Positions 22,004 to 63,554 of a stretch of 64,000 nucleotides of DNA are shown one piece after another. The notes below the pieces were generated by a model, which searched no databases, was not told the origin of the DNA, and saw only the letters and a program-made list of their open reading frames with translations. The position numbers were made by a program, and so were the translations under genes. The DNA is from Candidatus Poribacteria bacterium. Lineage in GTDB: Bacteria > Poribacteria > WGA-4E > WGA-3G. Numbering within the stretch: position 1 is the stretch's first letter; each line of letters begins with the position of its first letter. The stretch lies in contig CBDBFU010000032.1 in the NCBI GenBank assembly GCA_965205025.1, positions 192,001 through 256,000 of the forward strand, read 5' to 3'.

Positions 22004-22414
22004 ATGCTCTTTAATTTCGCGAATGTTCTGATATTTGTTATTGTCGGATGTCTATTTGTTGTATTAAATTTGACTGTCTCTCGTTTACTTCACACGAAGT
22101 TGTTTTCCGGTGAAAAATACATCCCTTATGAATGTGGTGAAGATCCAATCGGTGATACGCGGATTAAGTTTAACACGCGTTTCTATGTCATCGCGCTAAT
22201 TTTTTTAATTTTTGATGTTGAAGTTGTTTTCCTTCTACCGTGGGCAGTGGTTTTCCGTAGTATTGGTCCCATTGCATTTCTGGAGATGCTCGTTTTTATC
22301 GCTATACTCTTAGTAGGTTTGGCTTATGTATGGGCAAAAGGTGACCTTGAATGGATCCGTTCTACACAATTAGAAGTACAGTCCGTTCAAAGGGAGGAAA
22401 GTTATGATAATTGA
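22004..22414 (+). CDS. nuoA: NADH-quinone oxidoreductase subunit A
   Basis: [32 protein letters not shown]. Confidence 0.95.
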
Positions 22415-22994
22415 TGAAAAACTTGATAAGAATATCATTGTTACATCAGTTGACGCTGTTGCCAATTGGGCACGTTCCTCTGCCCTTTGGCCAATGACAT
22501 TTGGACTTGCATGTTGTGCAATTGAATTTATGGCAACTGCAGCCTCAAATTATGACCTGGACAGATTTGGTGCTGGTGTCCCTCGTGCTACACCCCGTCA
22601 ATCCGATTTAATGGTGATTTCTGGTACGGTTACACTTAAGATGGCAACACGTATAAAACGACTATATGAACAGATGCCTGAACCAAAATATGTCATCTCT
22701 ATGGGAAGTTGTGCTACAAGTGGTGGACCCTACTGGCAACACGGTTACCATGTTCTTAAAGGTGTTGATAGGATTATCCCTGTTGATGTTTATGTGCCAG
22801 GATGTCCTCCCAGACCCGAAGCACTCATAGAAGGACTATTAAAATTACAAGAAAAAATTCGAACACAAACTGTCGCTAAACGATCAGATGTACCATTTCT
22901 AAAAAGACTCTTTACAAAGACTGAATGGTATGAACAAGAAAAGATTGAAGCTGCAACCGATGAAGATACACCTGATACTGAAGACAAAACTTAG
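22404..22994 (+). CDS. nuoB: NADH-quinone oxidoreductase subunit B
   Basis: [27 protein letters not shown]. Confidence 0.96.
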
Positions 22995-23047: not shown

Positions 23048-23533
23048 GTGAACCTTGAAGAAATCTATCAGGTCTTAAAAGATAAGTTTGGTGAAGCTGT
23101 CCTTACACTTGACACAGAACTTTCTGGTGATCATAGTATTCATATCTCTCCTACAGAAATCGCAGATGTATGTAAATTCCTTAAAGAGACTGATACATTA
23201 GCATTTGATTCACTGATGTGTCTAAGTGGAGTTGATTTGAGTGCTAAAGATGAGGAATTTGCTGTTGTATATCATCTCTACTCTATGAATCACCGGCATA
23301 AGGTTGTATTAAAGACACTTCTACCCAAATCAGAACCGCAATTACCCAGTGTCTCACATATTTGGAAAACTGCAGATTGGCATGAAAGAGAAGCTTACGA
23401 TCTTTACGGAATAATCTTTGAAGGACATACAGATCTTCGTAGACTTCTACTCCCTGATGATTGGGAAGGATATCCTTTACGGAAAGACTATCAAGAACCC
23501 GATTTCTATCGTGGAATGCGTGTTCCATATTAA
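23048..23533 (+). CDS. nuoC: NADH-quinone oxidoreductase subunit C
   Basis: WHEREAYDLYGIIFEGH.DLRRLLLPDDWEGYPLRKDY. Confidence 0.96.
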   Translation: MNLEEIYQVLKDKFGEAVLTLDTELSGDHSIHISPTEIADVCKFLKETDTLAFDSLMCLSGVDLSAKDEEFAVVYHLYSMNHRHKVVLKTLLPKSEPQLPSVSHIWKTADWHEREAYDLYGIIFEGHTDLRRLLLPDDWEGYPLRKDYQEPDFYRGMRVPY

Positions 23534-23607
23534 ATGTATTAAGCAAGTATCTAATTTAATATAGAAATATATAGTTTAGGAATACTCAAGAACAATCACC
23601 CAAATTT

Positions 23608-24812
23608 ATGGAAAGTACACAATCAACAGAATCAAAAATCATTGAATTAAAACCTTTTACGGATGAAATGATTGTAAATATGGGACCTCAACATCCAAGT
23701 ACACACGGTGTACTTCGTTTGGAATTGAAATTGGATGGTGAGGTAGTTCGTGAAGCAATTCCACATATCGGATATCTCCACCGTTGTTTCGAAAAACACT
23801 CTGAAAATCTCTCATACCCCCAAATCATACCTTTTACGGATCGCATGGATTATGTTGCAGCAATGAACCAAAATTGGGGGTTTTGCCTTGCTGTAGAAAA
23901 ACTCATGGAGGCTGATGAGGAAAAGGAATTCGCTGTACCAGAACGTGCAGAATATCTACGAGTATTAATATGTGAATTAAATCGTATTGCAAGTCATCTA
24001 CTGTCTTTGGAACTTACGGTATGGATATCGGAGCATTCACACCATTCCTCTATGCTTTCCGCGATCGTGAACGTCTTCTACTTCTTTTTGAGAAAGTATG
24101 TGGGGCACGTTTAACCTATAATTATATTCGTATTGGTGGTGTTTCTGAAATTATACCGATGGAACCGGGATCTATTGATGAACAAAACTTCTTAGATGAG
24201 ATTGAGGAATTTCTCGATTACTTTGAACCACAGATTGATGAATATAATGACCTACTAACTTCCAATAGTATCTTTGCTGAAAGAACAATGGGGGTCGCAG
24301 TAATGTCTGCTGAGATGGCATTGAGTTATGGATCGACTGGACCGAATCTACGTGGTTCAGGTGTCGACTGGGATTTAAGACGAGATGAACCTTATTCAAT
24401 ATATGATCGATTTGAATATGATGTACCAGTTGCCAAGGATATACCGGAATTAGGGGCTGTTGTCGGGGATTGTTGGAGTCGATACAAAATACGGATGGAT
24501 GAAATGAAGGAATCCGTTAGTATATGTCGACAGATTTTAGCTGAAGGTTTACCTGATGGACCTGTTATGGCAGATTTGAAAGCAGTCCGTCCTCCTAAGG
24601 GTGAGATATATTTCCGTAGTGAAGCACCGAGGGGAGAGTTGGGTTTCTACATTGTCAGTGATGGTACACCTAAACCTGTCCGTGTCAAGGGACGATCCCC
24701 ATGCTTCAGTGCTCTAAGTGCTCTGCAGGAATTAAGTCAAGGATTGATGGTAGCTGATATCATCGCAATTATTGGTAGTATTGATATTGTTATGGGAGAA
24801 GTTGATAGATAG
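23608..24812 (+). CDS. nuoD: NADH-quinone oxidoreductase subunit D (one frameshift near 24006-24009, probably a sequencing error)
   Basis: [15 protein letters not shown]...ELNRIASHL in one frame and DIGAFTPF...EAPRGE...GEVDR in another; one extra T in CTGTCTTTGGAAC restores [12 protein letters not shown]. Confidence 0.93.
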
Positions 24813-24897
24813 TATTTTGGTCATTGAAATGTAAAGTTGAATACTATTCTAAACAAGAAAATGCAATCATTGTTTTGTATACAAATAAGGAAGTTTG

Positions 24898-26115
24898 ATG
24901 TCGGATATTTTACCAAGTAGTTTTTTTATTCAGATTCAAGATGCATCTGGTAATTGGGCTTCAGATTTCGTTGAAAATGTAATTATTCCTAAAATTCCTC
25001 ATCTACCCGTGGAGTTAGGCACTGTACTCGTGATGATAGCATGTGCGGGTATATTCGTTGCCGTTGTTCCTTTACTTCCATTAGTACTTGTTCTTGCAGA
25101 AAGAAAAGTTGCTGCTCGGTTTCAAAACAGAACAGGTCCAATGCGTGTTGGACCGTGGGGAACTCTTCAAACGCTTGCAGATGGAATAAAACTTATCTTT
25201 AAAGAAGATTTTATTCCAGCTCAAGGTGACAAACTCCTTTTCCTTCTTGCTCCTTATGTCATATTTGCCTGTTCTTTCGCAGTATTTGCAGCTATCCCAT
25301 TTGGTCAAAATATATTAGTGAGTGATTTTAATATCGGCATCTTTTATATTATGGCGATTTCATCAGTCATTGTCATGGGAGTGATTATGGCTGGATGGTC
25401 ATCAAATAGTAAATGGTCTCTGTTAGGTTCATTGCGTTCGGCAGCACAGATTGTCAGTTATGAAATTCCACTCGGTCTTTCCATCTTAACTGTAGTTATG
25501 TTGGTTGGAAGTTTGGGTATGAGAGATATCGTCGCTTCTCAAGAGAACGGGTTTTTCAGTTGGTTAATTTTTAGATCACCCTTTACGTTCATTGCATTCT
25601 TTATCTTTTTCATTTCATCTATCGCGGAAGTCAACCGAACCCCATTTGATTTACCTGAAGCGGAATCTGAAATCGTTGCGGGTTTCCACACTGAATATAG
25701 TGGCATGCGATTCGCACTCTTCTTTATTGCTGAATATGCAAATATGTTCGCTGTCAGTGCAATAGCAGTTACACTATTTCTGGGTGGATATGAAGGTGTG
25801 CTTCCCGGTTATGACTTCATGGGCGGTTTCCCCGGTTTTGTTATAAAGACATTAGGTCTTGTTTTCTTAATGATGTGGTTGAGATGGACTCTTCCGCGAT
25901 TGCGTGTTGACCAACTAATGAATCTCTGCTGGAAATATTTTATACCGATCTCTTTCTTCAACATCTTAGGGACTGGAGTCTGGGGTTTAATTTTCGAAAC
26001 GGATGATATATGGAGTATAGGAATTAGTTGTACAATTATATATGTCGGTTTAATCAGTGCGTATGCTTTGGCTGGACGGGTTTTCTCTCGAAAACCTGCA
26101 ACACAAGCAAGTTAG
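24898..26115 (+). CDS. nuoH: NADH-quinone oxidoreductase subunit H
   Basis: ERKVAARFQNRTGP, ADGIKL, NRTPFDLPEAESE, PRLRVDQLM. Confidence 0.96.
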   Translation: MSDILPSSFFIQIQDASGNWASDFVENVIIPKIPHLPVELGTVLVMIACAGIFVAVVPLLPLVLVLAERKVAARFQNRTGPMRVGPWGTLQTLADGIKLIFKEDFIPAQGDKLLFLLAPYVIFACSFAVFAAIPFGQNILVSDFNIGIFYIMAISSVIVMGVIMAGWSSNSKWSLLGSLRSAAQIVSYEIPLGLSILTVVMLVGSLGMRDIVASQENGFFSWLIFRSPFTFIAFFIFFISSIAEVNRTPFDLPEAESEIVAGFHTEYSGMRFALFFIAEYANMFAVSAIAVTLFLGGYEGVLPGYDFMGGFPGFVIKTLGLVFLMMWLRWTLPRLRVDQLMNLCWKYFIPISFFNILGTGVWGLIFETDDIWSIGISCTIIYVGLISAYALAGRVFSRKPATQAS

Positions 26116-26151
26116 GTTAATCTATATAGTCCCAATTTGGAGAATACAAAT

Positions 26152-26871
26152 ATGGACAAATACATACGAAACATATACAAAGGTATATACACTGTCCTTG
26201 TTGGAATGCGGATTACTATACGACAGTTCTTTGAACCAAATGTGACACACCAATACCCTTATGAACATGATTTTGAAAAGAAGCAGAATGTACGGGAGAT
26301 TCCAAAAGGATATCGTGGACAACTCTATAATCGTATAGAGGATTGTATTGGATGTAAAAAATGTGAGATGATCTGTCCTGTTGATTGTATTACCATCCAA
26401 GGTGATAAACTTCCAAAAGGTGAACAACTTTGGGATAGTATGAATGTTATTCATCTAAAAGATGGTAGAGAAATAATTGGAATATTAGAAGGTGATGACA
26501 AAAAGATTAATCTTGAAGGTTCACTGACATTGACCAATACCACATCCCGCTTGGGACCACAAGAAGTTATAGACCGTCTTGAACCCTCTGGCGATGAAAG
26601 CAGAACACAGACTATATCGGGTTCTGAAGTTTCTCGTGTTGTTACACGTAACCCTGTCGTATTCTATCTTGACCAGTTTGATATTGATATGTCCCTCTGC
26701 ATGTATTGTGGATTGTGTACTGAAGTTTGTCCCACTGAGTGTCTTGTCATGAAGGATTCACTGGAAGGTATTGAGTATTCAAAGTTTGACCGTACAGATC
26801 TGATATTCGAATTTGATAAGCAGGAAATGTACAATAAGAATGACGAAAGTAGTATAGAAGCTGCAGATTAA
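26152..26871 (+). CDS. nuoI: NADH-quinone oxidoreductase subunit I with a 70-aa insertion
   Basis: VTHQYP, CIGCKKCEMICP and CMYCGLCTEVCP; start at ATG 26152 (GGAG upstream). Confidence 0.93.
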   Translation: MDKYIRNIYKGIYTVLVGMRITIRQFFEPNVTHQYPYEHDFEKKQNVREIPKGYRGQLYNRIEDCIGCKKCEMICPVDCITIQGDKLPKGEQLWDSMNVIHLKDGREIIGILEGDDKKINLEGSLTLTNTTSRLGPQEVIDRLEPSGDESRTQTISGSEVSRVVTRNPVVFYLDQFDIDMSLCMYCGLCTEVCPTECLVMKDSLEGIEYSKFDRTDLIFEFDKQEMYNKNDESSIEAAD

Positions 26872-26908: not shown

Positions 26909-27427
26909 ATGGAAATAACACTGAAGACACTTGTTTTTTATGGATTTGCTCTTCTAACAATCGGTTCTGCCTTCGCTGTAGTAACCGTCCGTAATATCGT
27001 ACATGCTGCATTTGCACTCATGGTAACTCTTTTTGGGGTAGCAGGACTTTACGTGTTCCTACAAGCAGATTTTCTTGCTGCAACACAGGTGATTGTATAT
27101 GTTGGTGGGATACTCGTTCTCATTCTTTTTGGTGTCATGATGACAAGTGGTAGATTACAAATGCGTATCCATATTGAAAGAGGACAACTCCTATTGGGTG
27201 GTGGTATTACAATTGCTTTACTCCTGCTGTTATTGACAGTCATTGCTAATACACCCAGATGGAAGAACTTATCTGATGATGGAACTGAGTTTGCTCCTAC
27301 AACAAGTCGTATTGGTGAACTGATTTTAAATGAACAATTTCTGCTTCCATTCGAGATTGCCTCTGTATTGTTATTAGTCGCACTTATCGGTGCAGCTTTA
27401 ATATCTCGTAAGGAGATAAGGGATTAA
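26909..27427 (+). CDS. nuoJ: NADH-quinone oxidoreductase subunit J
   Basis: ADFLAATQVIVYVGGILVL, LPFEIASVLLLVALIGA. Confidence 0.95.
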   Translation: MEITLKTLVFYGFALLTIGSAFAVVTVRNIVHAAFALMVTLFGVAGLYVFLQADFLAATQVIVYVGGILVLILFGVMMTSGRLQMRIHIERGQLLLGGGITIALLLLLLTVIANTPRWKNLSDDGTEFAPTTSRIGELILNEQFLLPFEIASVLLLVALIGAALISRKEIRD

Positions 27428-27463: not shown

Positions 27464-27772
27464 ATGACTTTACAACACTATTTAGTCATCAGTTCAATCT
27501 TGTTTTGTCTCGGTATTTTTGCTGTTTTGACACGACGCAATGCAATTAGTATTCTTATGGGTATTGAACTCATTCTCAATTCTTGCAATCTTAATTTCGT
27601 TGCTTTCTCACGTTTTGTCACGCCACCTGAGAACATAGATGGTCAGATCATTGCCATATTTGGTATTGTCTTAGCTGCAGCTGAGGCAGCTGTTTTTCTT
27701 GCGATTATACTTGCTATCTACCGTGAATTTGGTAGTATCAGACCTGATGAAGTGGATACCTTAAAGGGGTAA
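27464..27772 (+). CDS. nuoK: NADH-quinone oxidoreductase subunit K
   Basis: RRNAISILMGIELILN, AAAEAAV. Confidence 0.96.
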   Translation: MTLQHYLVISSILFCLGIFAVLTRRNAISILMGIELILNSCNLNFVAFSRFVTPPENIDGQIIAIFGIVLAAAEAAVFLAIILAIYREFGSIRPDEVDTLKG

Positions 27773-30138: not shown

Positions 30139-31662
30139 ATGTTATTATCGCTAATGATTTTTGTTCCATTGCTTGGGATGGTAGTTGTTTTGCTTCTACC
30201 ACGCGAATCTGAGGAACTCATAAAACGGGTTACACTGCTGTTTACATTCATTCCGCTCATTCTTGCTGTGTATCTATTTATTGTCTATGAGCGTTCAACA
30301 GCTTCATCCCAGTATATTGCTAACATTACATGGATTGAGAAATTTAATATTAACTATCATGTCGGAATTGACGGCTTGAGTGTTACTTTGATCCTTCTGA
30401 CTGCCTTATTGGGACCAATCTGTGTGATAGCATCCTGGCGAAATATAGAAAAAGGTATTAAGGCTTACATGGCACTGTTTCTGATGTTGGAAACAGGTAT
30501 GTTAGGTTTCTTCGCTGCGTTGGATCTATTCCTATTCTATGTTTTCTTTGAACTAACACTATTGCCGATGTATTTCCTAATCGGTGTATGGGGAGGTCCA
30601 CGTCGTGAATATGCGGCAATAAAATTCTTCCTTTACACACTATTTGGTAGTGTGTTGATGTTAGTAGCAATGATTGCTGTCTATCTGACCAGTGGCGATC
30701 CAGGATCACGGACATTTGATATTCCAACCCTAATTGCGTTAGCTTCAACAGAAGGACATGCCCTCAATGATCTGAATTTCCAGATATGGGTTTTCCTTGG
30801 ATTCTTTATCGGTTTTGCTGTCAAAGTTCCAATCTTCCCATTTCATACATGGCTTCCAGATGCACACGTTGAAGCACCGACAGCAATAAGTGTAATTCTT
30901 GCTGGTGTTTTATTAAAGATGGGTACATACGGTCTCGTTCGGATTAACATGGCAATGTTCCCGTTAGGTTTGGATAGATTTACGAATGGTTCGGACTTCT
31001 TGGGTTACAGTCTTGCACTTCTCGGTTTTATAAATATTGTATACGGTTCATTCTGTGCATTAGCACAAACGGATTTTAAAAAATTGGTGGCATATTCCAG
31101 TATTGGACATATGGGATTTGTCATTTTAGGATTGGCAGCCCGAAATGATACCGGTATTTCTGGAGCTATTCTTCAGATGTTTAATCACGGTGTCATCAGT
31201 GCAATGTTATTCCTACTGGTAGGTGTTCTTTATGATCGAGCTCATCATCGTGAGATAAACGGTTTTGGTGGTATAGCAAGTAAAATGCCAATTTACACAG
31301 GAATTACAACACTGGCTTTTATGGCTTCTTTAGGGTTGCCGGGGTTAAGTGGATTTGTAGGGGAGGCACTCTCTCTGCTTGGCGCGTTTGCCAAATATAA
31401 GACGCTGACGATATTATCCACCATTGGTATAGTTGTTGGTGCAGCATATTTTCTATGGACATTACAAAGAGTCTTCATGGGTGCATTGAACCCAGATTAT
31501 GAGGATATACCCGAAATCAACGGTCGTGAAATACTTACCTTAGTTCCACTTGGAATCCTTACCATTGTCCTCGGTGTTTTTCCGCATATAGTAATTGATA
31601 TGTTCAGTGAATCTGTAACCGAACTCACAAAAGTCATTGGCACATTCCAAGCGAACCTATAG
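30139..31662 (+). CDS. nuoM: NADH-quinone oxidoreductase subunit M
   Basis: FHTWLPDAHVEAPT, LLKMGTYG, LGLPGLSGFVGE. Confidence 0.96.
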   Translation: MLLSLMIFVPLLGMVVVLLLPRESEELIKRVTLLFTFIPLILAVYLFIVYERSTASSQYIANITWIEKFNINYHVGIDGLSVTLILLTALLGPICVIASWRNIEKGIKAYMALFLMLETGMLGFFAALDLFLFYVFFELTLLPMYFLIGVWGGPRREYAAIKFFLYTLFGSVLMLVAMIAVYLTSGDPGSRTFDIPTLIALASTEGHALNDLNFQIWVFLGFFIGFAVKVPIFPFHTWLPDAHVEAPTAISVILAGVLLKMGTYGLVRINMAMFPLGLDRFTNGSDFLGYSLALLGFINIVYGSFCALAQTDFKKLVAYSSIGHMGFVILGLAARNDTGISGAILQMFNHGVISAMLFLLVGVLYDRAHHREINGFGGIASKMPIYTGITTLAFMASLGLPGLSGFVGEALSLLGAFAKYKTLTILSTIGIVVGAAYFLWTLQRVFMGALNPDYEDIPEINGREILTLVPLGILTIVLGVFPHIVIDMFSESVTELTKVIGTFQANL

Positions 31663-31671
31663 GAGGATGGT

Positions 31672-33144
31672 GTGGATTACAAGAACAATATTGAGAGTAT
31701 CCTCTATTTCACACCAGAGATCCTACTCATCGTATTTGCCGCAGCAGTTATCATCCTTGATCTTTTTGTTAAGAACAGGGATAGTCAGAAGGTCGCATAT
31801 TTATCTCTGATAGGTCTTGGTTGTACTTTAGTTGCAGTTCTAATTACAAATTCATTAATTGCGGATAGTTCTTTACCCCTTTTCTTGGGTATGATTCGCT
31901 TAGATAAGTTTGCGGTTTTTTTCAAAGTATTGTTAGTATTAGCAACTGCAGCAACTATCCTGTTCTCACTCCGATCCGATGAAATTGATGCAAGATTAAA
32001 GGGTGAGTATTACGCTCTTTTGTTGGCTGTAACCCTAGGTATGTTTCTAATGGCATCATCAACAAATCTGTTGATGATTTTCATTTCTTTAGAAACCGTT
32101 AGTCTTACCTCATACATTCTTGCCGGTTTCTTAACCCATAGTCCACGTTCAAGTGAAGCAGCCTTCAAATACATTACCTACGGTGCCGTAGCATCTGGAA
32201 CGATGTTATTTGGATTATCATTGTTGTATGGTATGACTGGAACAGGGAATTTAGCAGAGATTAGTCAACGACTACCTGAAGTTTTGGCAGCAGGTGATGT
32301 AACCGGGTTAGGTCTACTTATTGCAATTACTTTTATTCTTGCAGGTATAGGTTATAAAATTGCATCAGTTCCTTTCCATATGTGGTCACCAGATGTCTAC
32401 GAAGGTGCTCCCATTCCTATAACAGCATTTCTATCTGTTGCTTCCAAAGCTGCAGGATTTGCTCTGTTTTTAAGGTTCTTTTATTCAGGGTTTCAAGCAG
32501 AGGGAGTTCTACAATCAGTTGACTGGACTTTTTTGTTAGCCATTGTTTCTGCACTTACGATGACAATAGGGAATCTTGCAGCATTACCACAACAAAACGT
32601 GAAACGACTATTGGCATATTCAAGCATCTCACATGGTGGTTATCTATTGATGGGTGGTGTTCTTCTAACCTCTGAAGGACTCAGTGCAATCCTCTTCTAT
32701 CTTGTGGTCTACTTCTTTATGAATTTGGGGGCATTCTATGTCGTTGTCTTAATTGCAAATGAATCGGGTAGTGAAATGATTGAGAGTTATCGCGGTCTTT
32801 CATCTCGGGCACCATTTGTTGCTGTAGCAATGTTGATTTTCTTGGTTTCTCTTACTGGTATACCACCTGTTGCAGGATTCTTCGGTAAATGGTTATTATT
32901 CACTGCTGTCATTAGTAAAGGAATGTATTGGTTGGCACTTATCGGTCTATTGAATAGTGTAGTTTCACTCTACTACTATGCTCGTATTATCAAAGCAATG
33001 TATTTTGAATCTTCTGAAGAAGAAGAGAGTTTTTCATTTTCAAATAGCACATTTGCTTTATTGAGTGTCTTTGTGATCCCCACCATTTTTATCGGTATCC
33101 TAAATTTCCTTTATAACTACTCAGATAAGATAACTCTACAGTAA
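31672..33144 (+). CDS. nuoN: NADH-quinone oxidoreductase subunit N
   Basis: EAAFKY, PFHMWSPDVYEGAP, KRLLAYSSISH, GIPPVAGFFGKW. Confidence 0.96.
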   Translation: MDYKNNIESILYFTPEILLIVFAAAVIILDLFVKNRDSQKVAYLSLIGLGCTLVAVLITNSLIADSSLPLFLGMIRLDKFAVFFKVLLVLATAATILFSLRSDEIDARLKGEYYALLLAVTLGMFLMASSTNLLMIFISLETVSLTSYILAGFLTHSPRSSEAAFKYITYGAVASGTMLFGLSLLYGMTGTGNLAEISQRLPEVLAAGDVTGLGLLIAITFILAGIGYKIASVPFHMWSPDVYEGAPIPITAFLSVASKAAGFALFLRFFYSGFQAEGVLQSVDWTFLLAIVSALTMTIGNLAALPQQNVKRLLAYSSISHGGYLLMGGVLLTSEGLSAILFYLVVYFFMNLGAFYVVVLIANESGSEMIESYRGLSSRAPFVAVAMLIFLVSLTGIPPVAGFFGKWLLFTAVISKGMYWLALIGLLNSVVSLYYYARIIKAMYFESSEEEESFSFSNSTFALLSVFVIPTIFIGILNFLYNYSDKITLQ

Positions 33145-56848: not shown

Positions 56849-58362
56849 ATGAGTAAAAAGCTCATCTTCCATTCACTTGGAAACCTGTTAATTTGCCTTG
56901 CTGGTACGATGCTTATCCCTCTTGGTATAGGCATATATTATTTTACAAATCTTAATGAACCAAAAGAGGATATGGTTGCCTTTATTTATACCACTATCAT
57001 TACACTCTGTGTTGGGTTAATCCTCCGTTTTACAATAAAGTCAAAAGGACAGGAGCTTGGTATCCGAGAGGGATTTGGGATTGTTGCTTTAGGATGGGTG
57101 GTAGTCGCACTTTTTGGTTCATTTCCATATCTATTTGCAGGTGTATTTTCATCTGAGAATCGTACACCTTTATCAGAATTTGCATTCTGTTATTTTGAAT
57201 CAATGTCCGGCTTTTCTACTACCGGGGCAACAGTTCTTACAGAAAATTGAACATCTATCCCATGCAATACTATTTTGGAGAAGCTTCAGCCACTGGCTTG
57301 GAGGAATGGGAATTGTTGTACTCGCAGTCGCTATCCTTCCAATGCTCGGTGTTGGTGGCATGCAGCTTTTTCGTGCAGAAGCACCAGGACCACAAACAGA
57401 CCGATTAACTCCACGTATTACCCAAACCGCTAAATTACTTTGGGGAGTCTATATACTTCTATCCTTGTTAGAAATTATACTACTCTGGTTAGGAGGAATG
57501 ACACTCTTTGATTCACTTTGCCATACCTTCGGAACTATGGCAACTGGGGGATTCTCAACAAAAAACACAAGTATTTCTCATTACAATAGTATATATATTG
57601 AGACTGTTATAATAGTCTTTATGTTCATAGCAGGGACAAATTTCGCATTACATTACCGAGCACTTCGTGGAAATGTTATTAGTTATTTTAAAGACACAGA
57701 ATTTCGTTTCTATTGTTGTGTTATCATAATAAGTATTACTCTTGTAACTTGGAACATTGTTAAGTTTAAGAATAATGATGGATCAATTCCATTTGATTCA
57801 GTTTGGGATGCACTACGTTATGCCTCTTTTCAAGTTCTATCAATTACAACTACCACCCCGGATATGGTACTGCAGATTTTGAAATGTGGCCATATTTATC
57901 TCAATTTATTCTAATTACCTTAATGTTCTATGGTGGTTGTGCTGGTTCAACTGGTGGAGGGATGAAACAACTTCGTTTTCTACTTCTGATTAAACAGAGT
58001 GGAGCAGAAATTAAACGTCTCATTTTTCCACATGCTGTCCTTCCTGTACGAGTAAATGAAAGAATCGTTCCATCTGAAGTACTCACACAATGTGTTAGGT
58101 TTCTTCTTCTTTTTCATCGGTATATTTGCAAATTGTCACCTGCATTATGTCTACATTAGGATTAGATTTGTTAACAGCAGCAAGTTGTACTATTGCAACT
58201 ATGGGAAACATAGGTCCCGGACTTGGTGATGTCGGTCCTATAGATAATTATGCACATATTGCAACTGCAGGAAAGTTTATACTTACATTCTGTATGCTAT
58301 TAGGAAGATTGGAAATTTATACTGTTTTAATCCTTTTTTCACCAAGTTTCTGGAAAAAGTAA
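56849..58362 (+). CDS. trkH: Trk potassium uptake membrane subunit (several frameshifts, probably sequencing errors)
   Basis: FESMSGFSTTGA, WLGGMG, TGGFS, GGCAGSTGGGMK, GNIGPG, MLLGRLE spread over four ORF fragments. Confidence 0.9.
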
Positions 58363-58363
58363 T

Positions 58364-59004
58364 ATGAATACTGAAAAATATCGTAGAGAATATAATCCAC
58401 ATGGTGGATTAACTGAAGATAAAGTAGCTAAAGATCCATTTGAACAATTCGAACAGTGGTTTAATGATGCCACAGATGCTGGAATTGATTTGCCTGATGC
58501 TATGACGCTAGCTACTGCAACAGTAGATGGAATTCCATCTGCCCGTATGGTTGTACTTCGCGGATTTGACAACGACGGTTTCTATTTCTATACTGACTAT
58601 GACAGTCAGAAAGGTAAAGAGTTGTCTGAAAATCCACATGCTGCCACTGTCTTTTATTGGCGGGGAATTGGACCGTCAAGTACGGATTACTGGTATGGTT
58701 GAAAAAATGTCTACTACTGAGTCTGATGCCTATTTTGCAAGTCGTCCTACCAGCAGTCAACTTGCAGTATGGACAGAACGACAAAGCAATACAGATTTCT
58801 GGACGTGAACACCTTATTGAGAATTATAAGAGGGTAGAACAGAATTATACAGATAAAGATATACCTAGACCACCACACTGGGGAGGTTATAGACTTATAC
58901 CTGACATGTTTGAATTTTGGCAGGGATCACCAAGTCGCTTACATGATCGGTTATGTTATAGATTCGTAGAAGATAATTGGATAATCACTCGAATTTCTCC
59001 GTAA
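58364..59004 (+). CDS. pdxH: Pyridoxamine 5'-phosphate oxidase (frameshifted)
   Basis: AMTLAT...PSARMV, RQVRI.G, YFASRP, PPHWGGY, EFWQG...RLHDR across three frames. Confidence 0.92.
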
Positions 59005-59224: not shown

Positions 59225-59593
59225 ATGCTACAAGATTATCTTCCTATAGTATTTTTAGGGATATTTGCTGTCCTATTTGCAGCTATAAATCTCGGACTTA
59301 CCCATCTTCTTGGACCAAAACGCCCCAACCGTGTAAAACTTTCAGTTTATGAATCTGGAGTACAACCGATAGGTGATGCAAGACAAAGATTCACTATTCG
59401 GTTTGACCTTATTGCTATGCTCTTTATCATCTTTGATATTGAGGTAGTCTTTCTATATCCATGGGCAGTTATTTTTAAAAAGATGTCTCAATCTGATGGA
59501 ATGTTTATATTAATTGAGATGCTGGTGTTTATCGGTATTCTACTTCTGGGTTACATTTACGCTTGGAAAAAAGGAGGCTTGACATGGGATTAG
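59225..59593 (+). CDS. nuoA: NADH-quinone oxidoreductase subunit A (second copy)
   Basis: [30 protein letters not shown]. Confidence 0.95.
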
Positions 59594-60105
59594 CCAATAA
59601 CAATATACAAAGTGGAGCAAGCACTGAACAATCTGATGGTAATATCATCACGACAACCATTGATAAGGTTGTCAATTGGGGACGGAAGAATTCATTGTGG
59701 CCAATGCCTTTTGGCACGGCTTGTTGTGCAATTGAGATGATGGCTACTTTGGCTTCCAAATATGATCTTTCTCGTTTTGGATCTGAGGCAATTCGTTTCT
59801 CACCTCGACAATCAGATCTACTCATCGTTTCTGGACGAATTTCTATAAAAATGATGCCGGTACTCAAACGTATCTATGATCAAATGCCGGACCCAAAATG
59901 GGTTATTTCTATGGGGGCATGTGCATCTTGCGGAGGAGTATTTGATACCTATACATTAATTCAAGGGGTTGACCAATTCCTACCTGTTGATGTTTATATT
60001 CCCGGATGTCCACCACGACCAGAAGATTTAATTGATGCAGTAATGCAAGTTCAACGACAAATACAAAAAGGCGAATTACCCAAAGGTGTTGAGGCTGCGC
60101 CATGA
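59584..60105 (+). CDS. nuoB: NADH-quinone oxidoreductase subunit B (second copy)
   Basis: [32 protein letters not shown]; GGAGG then ATG 59584. Confidence 0.95.
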
Positions 60106-60646
60106 CAGAAGAAAAAGAAATAACGGAAGAAACTATCCCATTAGTAATACAGCAACTAAGAGAAAAGTTCAGTGATGGACTACTGTCTGATGCTGAAGAC
60201 AAAAATGGTGTTGTCGTTGTTGTCAGCAAAGACAATTTATATCCTCTTTTAGAATATCTGAAAACGGATCTTGCTTATTCCATGTTGGTTGATATAACAG
60301 CAGTTGATAATTCCAACTTAGAAGAGGAATTAATGAAGTACGATTATGCAAGATTCATGGTCGTCTATCACCTATATACTTTTGAAGGTGAAACACCACG
60401 TATACGTGTTAAAGTGCCTGTCAATGATCAAGATTTAAATGTTCCTTCGCTCGTAAACTTATGGAAAGGTGCAAACTGGTTAGAAAGAGAAACTTATGAT
60501 ATGTTTGGAATTGAGTTTGAAGGACATCCTAATTTAACCCGAATACTTATGCCAGATGAGTTTGAGGACATCCACTCCGTAAAGATTATCCGTTACGAGG
60601 ACGCGGAGAACGAGAACGTTTCAATTTTGACAAACAGAATGCATAA
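60102..60646 (+). CDS. nuoC: NADH-quinone oxidoreductase subunit C (second copy; frameshift near 60567)
   Basis: [26 protein letters not shown]; the shifted frame gives [16 protein letters not shown]...NA and stops at 60646. Confidence 0.92.
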
Positions 60647-60671
60647 TGCAACATTAAGTTGGAGAAATTAA

Positions 60672-61433: not shown

Positions 61434-63529
61434 ATGAAAAAGTATAGGTTTCTTCTACTTATCTTCACAATTTCCACTTTCCAAATTTTCGGACAGGCAA
61501 CAGCGGCAGACCTAACGAAATGGAATTTGCCTGACGGGGCGTTTGCGCGTATTGGTAAAGGTATCGTAACAGATATCGCCTATTCACCAGATGGAAAGCA
61601 TTTGGCTGTCGCTACTTACATTGGAGTTTGGATATATGACCCACATACTGGCACTGAAAAGCACTTCTCACAGTTAACACGGGAAATGTGACATGGGAAG
61701 TTGTCTATAGTCCTGATGGACAAACACTGGCTGTACTTCAAAGAGATTTATTATTATGGGATACTCAAACATACACTCTTAAAGGAACATTGAAAGGACA
61801 CAGCCACTCGGTCACAGATGTTGTTTTTAGTCCTAATGGAAAGACTATCGCAATCGCGGATATGGATCAAACGACACAACTGTGGGATTTAGAGACCATG
61901 ACTCTCAAGTATACACTTGAAGGCAGCACTTGTGATTACAACCAATGAAGGCATGGTCATGTTCAGTGTAGCTTTTGATCCTATCGGAGATATGGTCGCT
62001 ATTGCATCTGAGGACGGGACTATTCGTCTATGGGATACAGCAACAGGGATACTTAAACAAACGCTTATTGGTTACTTCGGTTTTGGAGATAGTTTTTCTT
62101 TTAGTCAGGATGGAAAAACAATTGCAACTGAAAGTTTCAGCAACGCATTATTGCTATGGGATACAACAACAGGGAGAATTAAATCTACATTTAGAACTTT
62201 CACCAAAGGACCTGTTGTCTATAGTCCAGATGGAAATAAAATTGCTACTATCAGAGGTTCCTACATCATACTATGGGATGCAGTAACAGGTCAAATGCAA
62301 GGGATACTTGAAACAGGGACCGGTTAGAAGTTTCTTGTTTAGTCCAGATGGAAATAATGTTGCAATTGTCAAGAAGAAAGGAACTAACATCCAGAGCATT
62401 TCTCTATGGAATACTGCAGGGAATAAACCCTACGAATTTACTCCTATAGAAGAATGCGGGAATTCTTTATACTCAGATATCCCAGTGCCTGCAGGTAACC
62501 ATAAATACACTTTTGGAGATGCTAATTGGTCGGTGGAAGGTATGACTTTTAGTCCAGATGGACATACATTTGCCATGGTGAATCCAGAAGGCAATGTCCA
62601 GTTGTGGGAATACTGAAACAGGAGAACTCAGACATACTCTTAAACACAACAGTTCTGTTGTAGATGTATCGTTCAGCAAATTTTCTAATTTCAACGATAG
62701 AGCTAATAGAAACGATAATCTCATTACAGTGCATACCAACAAAAATATCCGAATATGGAATACAAACACACAGGTATGCAAACACATTTTTGAACTTACA
62801 AAACACTCTGCAGATATTGAAAGTGTCACCTATAGTCCAGACGGTAATACCCTTGCAACAGCAAGTTTAGATGCACTTTGCATTTTTGGGAAATCCCATC
62901 CGGAATGTTTAAAGGAACATTAGGAGAACATCGTGAGTTATTGATGGGACCGTTTAGTCCTGATGGAAAGACATTAGCTATACGTGAAGGTGAGAAATTG
63001 AAGATTTTTGAAATTACCACAATGAGCTTAAAAAATGAATTCAACGCCGTAGACTATGTACGTTGTATAGATTATAGTCCTGATGGAAAGACAATTGCTA
63101 TTGGAATGCAAATGTATAGCATAGTGGAGTTGTGGAAGACAACTGGTGAGAAGATAGATAGAATCAAATGCGACTATCAGTTAAGAAATGTAACATTTAG
63201 TCCTGATGGTAATACACTTGCTATAGGATTGAGTTACAATACATTACTATACGATGCAAAAACACTGACACGAAAGAATACTATTAAGGAAGACGGGACA
63301 ATCCTCAAATTTAGTGGGGATGGTAAGATACTCGCTAATGGTGGCTCAAATGGGAGAATATTACTCTCAGATACCGAAACTGGGAAAGAAAAATATAGTC
63401 TCACAGGACACGTTGGCACTGTAACCAGTATCGCGTTTTGTTCGGATAACAATACTGTTGCGACAGCAGGCGAAGATGGAAACTGTGCAATTATGGAACC
63501 TTACATCACAAGACTATATAACGAAATAA
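61434..63529 (+). CDS. Secreted WD40-repeat protein (multiple frameshifts)
   Basis: Signal peptide, LPDGAFARIGKG, repeated YSPDG/FSPDG...LWD units across six fragments; the corrected frame ends at TAA 63529. Confidence 0.82.
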
Positions 63530-63554
63530 ATTAGTTCAAATAACTTTAGGATTC

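Follow-up and report, generated by a model that had tools for sequence, protein, structure and literature searches.

A lineage-specific domain between the two [4Fe-4S] motifs of NuoI in nuoEFG-less complex I gene clusters of Poribacteria-like bacteria

Introduction

Where bacterial complex I enzymes without NuoEFG, of which there are many, obtain their electrons is an old question, and a search for a donor common to such enzymes failed, according to the available part of a previous report (PMC11238625). A stretch of 64,000 nucleotides from a Candidatus Poribacteria bacterium (GenBank assembly GCA_965205025.1, contig CBDBFU010000032.1, positions 192,001 to 256,000; hereafter the window) raises this question in a particular form. 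It contains an 11-gene nuo cluster (nuoABCDHIJKLMN) with no nuoE, nuoF, or nuoG between nuoD and nuoH, and its nuoI gene, which lies between nuoH and nuoJ here and in relatives, encodes a NuoI with an additional block between the two iron-sulfur cluster motifs. What is this block, and could it have a part in bringing electrons into an enzyme of this type?

Results

An in-frame block between the cluster motifs of NuoI

The best matches of the encoded protein among all PDB chains (phmmer) are complex I TYKY/NuoI chains. Residues 15-90 and 175-233 align to residues 23-95 and 101-154 of plant TYKY, and approximately 80 residues have no counterpart in the solved complex I chains. The TIGR01971 model gives 85.3 bits, below its cut-off of 113.05, because the additional block splits the match in two (residues 18-95 and a C-terminal part). 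NuoI carries a pair of CxxCxxCxxxCP motifs as ligands for clusters N6a and N6b; all of the corresponding positions (C65, C68, C71, C75, and P76 in the first motif, C183, C186, C189, C193, and P194 in the second) are invariant in alignments A1 and A4. From P76 to C183 we counted 106 residues, compared with about 37-38 in the nearest insert-less relatives. It is thereby confirmed that the open reading frame (ORF) at 26152-26871 encodes NuoI with an in-frame extra block between its cluster motifs, much as an earlier note on the window had described it: the spacer of about 107 residues given there agrees with our count, and the coordinates 26440-26649 correspond exactly to M97-R166. An alternative start codon (TTG at 26137) lies upstream of the ATG at 26152 in the ORF list.

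Relative to the nearest insert-less relatives, the insert amounts to about 69 residues in the window's NuoI and 49-50 in other families (A4). The minimal form (49-54 residues), found in families f2, f3, f4, and f7, is devoid of the sub-insert at residues 132-150. The insertion point is the tip of the hairpin between the motifs, after a '...GE(D/Q)L.x(T/S)x' turn and before the descending strand (A4). Six residues of the insert (N98, H101, K103, D104, G110, and R166) vary little or not at all across 20-25 sequences.

The insert is not an assembly artefact. Inside nuoI the window shows no difference from short-read contigs of two runs, X1 and X2 (possibly the window's own source), which cover 25449-26711 and 23500-26709, and internal stops occur in none of the matches listed for the insert in other genomes. 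RNA-library contigs X14 and X23 span the nuoI gene of a relative including the insert, which is not proof of transcription.

Distribution and selective constraint

Of the 176 genomes of this Poribacteria-like phylum, 158 matched a 92-residue query for the insert (residues 87-178) at E <= 0.001. It was found in all four families that make up the window's order (109/111 genomes in f1, 11/11 in f2, 29/29 in f3, and 7/7 in f4) and in the single genome of f7, and in none of the 16 genomes of families f5, f6, and f8-f11; among the genomes lacking a match, some reach a completeness of only 61-79%. When the f7 protein was used as a database query, it revealed about 10 further insert-bearing proteins related to the f7 form, and the next-ranked proteins (163-220 residues) have no insert. 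One close NuoI homologue carries the label Candidatus Poribacteria.

No free-standing relative of the domain emerged from an exhaustive HMMER search covering 1.84 billion representative proteins; only seven of them matched at E <= 0.001, and the real ones either belong to this NuoI cluster or are short fragments. Three long, repetitive proteins (P0122, P0123, and P0126) were rejected as relatives, their matches being compositional only; P0122 and P0126 were checked and have Pfam matches unrelated to the insert. The ESM Atlas offered no usable match to the insert. In the literature within reach, which left out most subscription journals and supplements, we found neither a prior description of the insert or of Poribacterial NuoI nor a paper naming NuoI and Poribacteria together. 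This NuoI is a core complex I subunit with a novel domain.

The insert is under purifying selection. Among 14 nuoI genes of the window's family (51 of 91 pairs usable), the median ratio of nonsynonymous to synonymous substitution rates (dN/dS) is 0.091 for the insert and 0.035 for the rest of NuoI, figures that are rough at a dS of about 1.4. The most relaxed part is the strand-3 region (residues 119-131, dN/dS 0.35), and the sub-insert at 132-150 shows a dN/dS of 0.10 within the window's family.

Predicted fold

An AlphaFold2 (AF2) model of residues 78-183, built from a 25-row alignment, predicts two hairpin strands plus five strands within the insert (98-102, 107-112, 124-128, 153-156, and 160-164) and no N-terminal helix in it. 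The predicted local distance difference test (pLDDT) score is 69 overall and 71-85 in the strand blocks. The full-length NuoI model is poor (mean pLDDT 50.6), the insert being its best-predicted part; within the insert the sub-insert has the lowest confidence (below 50 at residues 132-141 in the full-length model, with block means of 63 and 55 over domain-model residues 51-70, i.e., NuoI 128-147). The alignments behind the models are shallow, with 20-25 rows.

In a Foldseek search of the PDB, the best 40 matches of the insert were all Sm/LSm proteins or complexes containing them, with TM-scores among the listed matches of 0.36-0.42 by query and 0.33-0.63 by target; the best E value was 6.6e-3 and no match reached E <= 0.001. 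Foldseek matches to viral models were weak and uninformative. At the sequence level, the Pfam LSM family (PF01423) matched the insert with 17.4 bits (cut-off 23.4) over profile positions 12-34 of 66, and 9 of the 25 members matched it weakly (best E 0.0033). The Sm2 half of this profile was matched by neither the insert nor the 25 variants, and NdhS, for which Pfam has a model, was not among their Pfam matches at E <= 1. A search of PDB sequences with the insert alignment profile gave nothing below E 0.3. Considering that Foldseek stayed above E 0.001 and that the LSM match is below the Pfam cut-off, we describe the insert, by prediction, as a small Sm/SH3-like barrel and not as a family member: membership of LSm or NdhS cannot be shown.

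The earlier note had described the block as Sm-like and not low-complexity, which agrees with a conserved, folded-looking beta domain whose best fold matches are Sm-like. Of the two motifs that it recognized, the Sm1 part is retained as a weak partial match and the Sm2 part is not, and the fold comparison with LSm, SH3, and NdhS that it suggested put Sm/LSm folds on top, short of E <= 0.001, with no NdhS match. Compared with genuine Sm/LSm proteins, the insert shares the partial Sm1-like match and a variable loop between strands 3 and 4, the site of the family-specific sub-insert, but it has no Sm2 half and no predicted N-terminal helix and is embedded in a subunit of a membrane complex. An Sm-type sheet would put the start of strand 1 beside the end of strand 5, which would suit insertion into a hairpin tip.

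Linkage with nuoEFG-less clusters

The context of insert-bearing nuoI was examined in 12 additional loci (about 20 kb each) and in a partial one. The order nuoABCD-HIJKLMN is complete in 10 of the 12; the other two run from nuoD to nuoN, with nuoA-C outside the fetched piece, and the partial locus runs from nuoH to nuoN. No nuoE/F/G-like ORF was present in any of these 12 loci or in the partial one. The statement of the earlier note that the complex lacks NuoEFG thus applies to the cluster, here and in relatives, but not to the genome, which has a second nuo operon with nuoEFG. Co-occurrence of the insert with loss of nuoEFG, which the note proposed to check, is consistent across the examined loci, the nuoEFG operon going with an insert-less nuoI, although within one clade only. 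In all loci examined, the insert is linked with a nuoEFG-less cluster.

The second operon lies on the same contig, with nuoA2, nuoB2, and nuoC2 at window positions 59225-60671 and nuoD2, nuoE, nuoF, nuoG, nuoH2, nuoJ2, and nuoL2 beyond the window (L006, contig C32 256001-266570). There is no nuoI between nuoH2 and nuoJ2. A canonical nuoI of 182 residues without the insert (TIGR01971 113.2 bits) is located alone on contig C26 (L008 1354-1902, minus strand) and is presumably the NuoI of the nuoEFG-containing enzyme; which NuoI joins which complex is deduced here only from gene arrangement. Canonical nuoI was found in 156 of 176 genomes. It was detected in none of the four genomes of genus g13, where G033 and G034, the two searched for nuoF, both have a copy of canonical size (439 residues), and in none of the four genomes of genera g16 and g17, where the three searched (G058-G060) have only a fused NuoE-NuoF type.

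Discussion

Position of the insert at a putative donor site

The cyanobacterial and chloroplast NDH-1 complex, which also has no NuoEFG, provides the closest comparison. According to the available parts of two reports on it, the NdhI hairpin projects into the cytoplasm above the hydrophilic arm, forms a basic ferredoxin patch together with the NdhH C-terminus, and has NdhV on the side opposite ferredoxin, whose cluster is 9.6 Å from N6a (PMC6992706, Pan et al.); Lys86, Lys89, and Lys91 of NdhI contact ferredoxin, and the SH3-like NdhS is seated in an NdhI groove and holds NdhV, at about 25 Å from ferredoxin and not in contact with it (PMC7021789, Zhang et al. 2020). We take the hairpin of both papers to be the hairpin between the cluster motifs. 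The insert takes the place of its tip (phmmer against PDB chains; A4). In the phmmer alignment, residue 93 of the NdhI chain, which is contained in PDB entries such as 6khj, 6l7o, and 6l7p, corresponds to NuoI residue 173, so the ferredoxin-contact lysines would map to the strand directly after the insert. In the nearest insert-less relatives and the f7-like clade this descending strand is rich in Lys/Arg at the place of the NdhI lysines. The barrel may therefore be situated at the donor site of an enzyme lacking the N-module. The hairpin position in NDH-1 together with the nuoEFG-less cluster makes a donor-site role plausible, with direct docking no more than a candidate form of it.

The earlier note had cited NdhS as a precedent for ferredoxin docking. 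This does not hold, since NdhS does not touch ferredoxin; a buttress hence finds as much support in the analogy as a dock does.

A proposed built-in wall of the donor pocket

Starting from a conserved insert under purifying selection, with a predicted beta fold and a link to nuoEFG-less clusters, the reading that we tentatively prefer, although doubt still slightly outweighs it, is that the barrel, as a built-in element, walls or buttresses the donor pocket and takes part in donor selection. Without NuoEFG, the top of NuoI would be uncovered and N6a would take electrons directly from a soluble donor. A lineage-specific small beta-barrel at the tip of the hairpin linking the two [4Fe-4S] motifs could hold and wall this hairpin, as the separate NdhV and NdhS do in NDH-1 or PsaE in photosystem I, and might thereby help to shape the pocket and to decide which donor reaches N6a.

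PsaE of photosystem I is an SH3-like barrel. In that system, PsaC with PsaE and PsaD is comparable in that a 2[4Fe-4S] ferredoxin-fold subunit and small flanking subunits form a ferredoxin pocket, but it is a different enzyme with the opposite electron direction and separate polypeptides. The ferredoxin pocket of NDH-1 resembles that of photosystem I (PMC7021789). NDH-1 itself is similar in that the homologous NdhI hairpin forms the donor site and that the small beta-rich NdhV and the SH3-like NdhS sit on NdhI and buttress the hairpin (PMC6992706, PMC7021789). It differs in that the Poribacterial barrel is fused into the hairpin tip and is not a separate subunit, is mostly acidic where the NDH-1 site is strongly basic, and has no detectable sequence relation to NdhS or NdhV. 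A bolder proposal, which is doubtful but deserves mention, is that the fused barrel is an independently recruited counterpart of the accessory subunits of photosystem I and NDH-1, defining a distinct complex I subtype in Poribacteria-like bacteria in which the barrel selects the donor. On this proposal the donor could be something other than the usual acidic ferredoxin, considering that the barrel is acidic and that the basic hairpin strand has been lost.

Several points weigh against a donor-site role. Known ferredoxin sites are basic (PMC6992706, PMC7021789), but 20 of 25 barrel variants carry a net negative charge (-1 to -6), the C-terminal tail of NuoI is acidic, and the three small ferredoxins of this genome are very acidic (net -18 to -27). 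The window's order has lost most of the basic residues of the descending strand compared with insert-less relatives, keeping only R166 and the next residue (A4). The placement at the donor site derives from NDH-1 homology and one local alignment, and the fold model is only of moderate confidence, with a pLDDT of 69, no Foldseek match at E <= 0.001, and shallow alignments. The co-occurrence counts come from one clade and represent one or few evolutionary events. Furthermore, nuoEFG-less enzymes of cyanobacteria and Desulfitobacterium are reported with no mention of a NuoI insert in the available parts of the sources (PMC6992706, PMC7021789, PMC11238625), and the insert is dispensable for nuoEFG-less enzymes in general.

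Alternative explanations

The charge of the barrel, which is unfit for a ferredoxin dock, would also suit a rather unlikely but serious alternative, namely that the barrel is a purely structural cap that only stabilizes the peripheral arm or shields the exposed N6a where NuoG would sit, with no influence on donor choice. The variability of the loop/strand-3 region in length and sequence (the dN/dS of 0.35 for residues 119-131 given above) points the same way, and lineage-specific extensions adding inter-subunit contacts have been documented in E. coli complex I (PMC8357420, available part). Those extensions (the C-termini of NuoB, NuoI, and NuoF and a loop of NuoG) are likewise clade-restricted additions to core peripheral-arm subunits, but they are tails and a loop gluing NuoEFG to NuoBCDI (PMC8357420), unlike a folded domain at another site of NuoI in an enzyme without NuoEFG. 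Moreover, a domain at a hairpin tip in the cytoplasm (PMC6992706) would have little to pack against unless it were folded back, and strongly conserved polar residues of an exposed type suggest a specific contact.

The same conserved polar residues, together with the position at a hairpin of the NdhI ferredoxin type (PMC6992706, PMC7021789), could instead mean that ferredoxin or flavodoxin binds mainly to the barrel itself, which would bring the donor to N6a, a reading that we regard as unlikely. If the basic hairpin strand was lost only once the insert had arisen, docking may have passed to the barrel. A potential partner is widespread: a small 7Fe-type ferredoxin is present in one to four copies in all 46 searched genomes of the order, and this genome has three of 87 residues on contigs C27 and C31 (L055 2057-2320 and 2401-2664, and L054 2021-2317 on the minus strand), two of them in tandem. 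However, the acidity of the barrel, the NuoI tail, and these ferredoxins speaks against such docking, as does the example of NdhS, a buttress that binds no ferredoxin (PMC7021789), and no ferredoxin gene was found in or beside the nuo cluster in the 12 loci examined. For NuoI with three 4Fe-4S clusters and the 87-residue ferredoxin of contig C31, complex prediction gave scores of 0.27 and 0.04 (mark 0.32), which is evidence neither way. A fourth ferredoxin copy is fused to the start of a 416-480-residue protein (contig C26 116813-117046).

A larger input other than ferredoxin is an improbable partner, for instance an orphan NuoE-NuoF fusion or another dehydrogenase docking on the barrel as an N-module-like unit without NuoG. 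The fusion (542 residues, L007 5183-6811, minus strand, contig C10) has no neighbouring partner gene. Nearly every genome of the order has a conserved copy (E < 1e-240), with 80-100% identity across the family, and the only PF10588 match in the genome falls within the second nuo operon, so that the fusion has no NuoG/FdhA-type partner here. An acidic barrel would also suit a basic partner surface. Nevertheless, in three of five genomes examined (three other families) the fusion is followed by formate-dehydrogenase-alpha-like genes, so the simplest view is that it serves an NAD-linked formate dehydrogenase as diaphorase subunit, and related copies occur in families without the insert. We accordingly demoted the fusion as a candidate input module.

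It is hardly credible that the insert is a neutral loop expansion, an RNA-binding Sm module, or an assembly or annotation artefact: although a weak Sm1-like match exists and the assembly has indel errors, distribution (158 of 176 genomes, no stop in the matches listed), agreement of the read contigs, and selection (dN/dS 0.09) largely refute the neutral and artefact readings, the Sm2 half has no match, and ring assembly or RNA binding of the Sm type is unlikely for a domain whose two ends are both anchored in NuoI.

For the question of the electron source, a conserved folded NuoI domain, located at the counterpart of the one donor site known from structures, is a concrete handle, open to expression, mutation, deletion, or use as bait. 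In the absence of NuoG, an entire domain is accommodated at the tip of the NuoI hairpin, which bears on how complex I forms with and without the N-module diverged. Both forms persist side by side in these genomes with a separate NuoI for each, a natural comparison within the cell.

Gene neighbourhood and minor observations

Table 1. Features of the nuo cluster and of NuoI in the window (all positions are those of the window)
Feature	Positions	Strand	Basis or remark
nuoA	22004..22414	+	ORF list; same gene order in relatives
nuoB	22404..22994	+	ORF list; relatives
nuoC	23048..23533	+	ORF list; relatives
nuoD	23608..24812	+	two ORFs in window, one T missing behind 24005
nuoH	24895..26115	+	ORF list; relatives; directly after nuoD
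nuoI, 239 aa	26152..26871	+	TIGR01971 match in two pieces; complex I TYKY/NuoI chains; between nuoH and nuoJ
first CxxCxxCxxxCP motif, CIGCKKCEMICP, residues C65-P76	26344..26379	+	invariant columns, alignments A1 and A4
inserted small beta-barrel domain (predicted), about residues 97-167	26440..26652	+	no counterpart in solved chains or insert-less relatives; AF2; Foldseek; dN/dS
family-specific sub-insert, about 18-19 aa, residues 132-150, between predicted barrel strands 3 and 4	26545..26601	+	alignments A1 and A4
second CxxCxxCxxxCP motif, CMYCGLCTEVCP, residues C183-P194	26698..26733	+	invariant columns, A1 and A4
nuoJ	26909..27427	+	ORF list; relatives
nuoK	27464..27772	+	ORF list; relatives
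nuoL, 738 aa	27782..29998	+	ORF list; relatives; His/Asp/Glu-rich stretches
nuoM	30139..31662	+	ORF list; relatives
nuoN	31672..33144	+	ORF list; relatives

The nuoD gene is intact, and its split into two ORFs (23608-24114 and 24021-24812) is an assembly indel error: tblastn places the frame change at about 24006-24009, and the otherwise identical X1 and X2 contigs have an extra T in the T-run there. The second-operon nuoF and nuoG are also read as two ORFs each, probably owing to further indel errors, and a TrkH-like transporter and a pyridoxamine-phosphate-oxidase-like gene (window positions 56849-58159 and 58364-59004) appear as two to three overlapping ORFs each, which probably reflect single-base assembly errors. 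The IMP-dehydrogenase-like gene that adjoins the canonical nuoI is split as well.

The nuo operons of this lineage are interrupted by foreign genes. Between nuoC2 and nuoD2 there are fragmented ORFs with WD40-like repeats (window positions 61434-63534), and an unrelated ORF is situated between nuoD2 and nuoE (L006 2691-3443). In the nuo clusters of relatives (L028-L039), gaps of 1-3 kb at A-B, C-D, and D-C hold unrelated genes. We considered these as a hidden input subunit and rejected them, as they encode a trypsin-like protease, DUF262-like proteins, a PIN-type toxin-antitoxin pair, an HNH nuclease, and a methyltransferase.

In two f4 genera, both without canonical nuoI, a protein of about 410 residues is encoded between nuoH and nuoI on the same strand (L032 10538-11764 and L034 10476-11720, minus strand). 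Its membrane part is COX4_pro-like (E 3.8e-10), and it also matches plastocyanin/azurin-like copper-binding proteins marginally (E 3.6e-4). The His/Asp/Glu-rich stretches of nuoL resemble metal-binding or low-complexity inserts, and the length of this protein is kept in relatives (720-770 residues).

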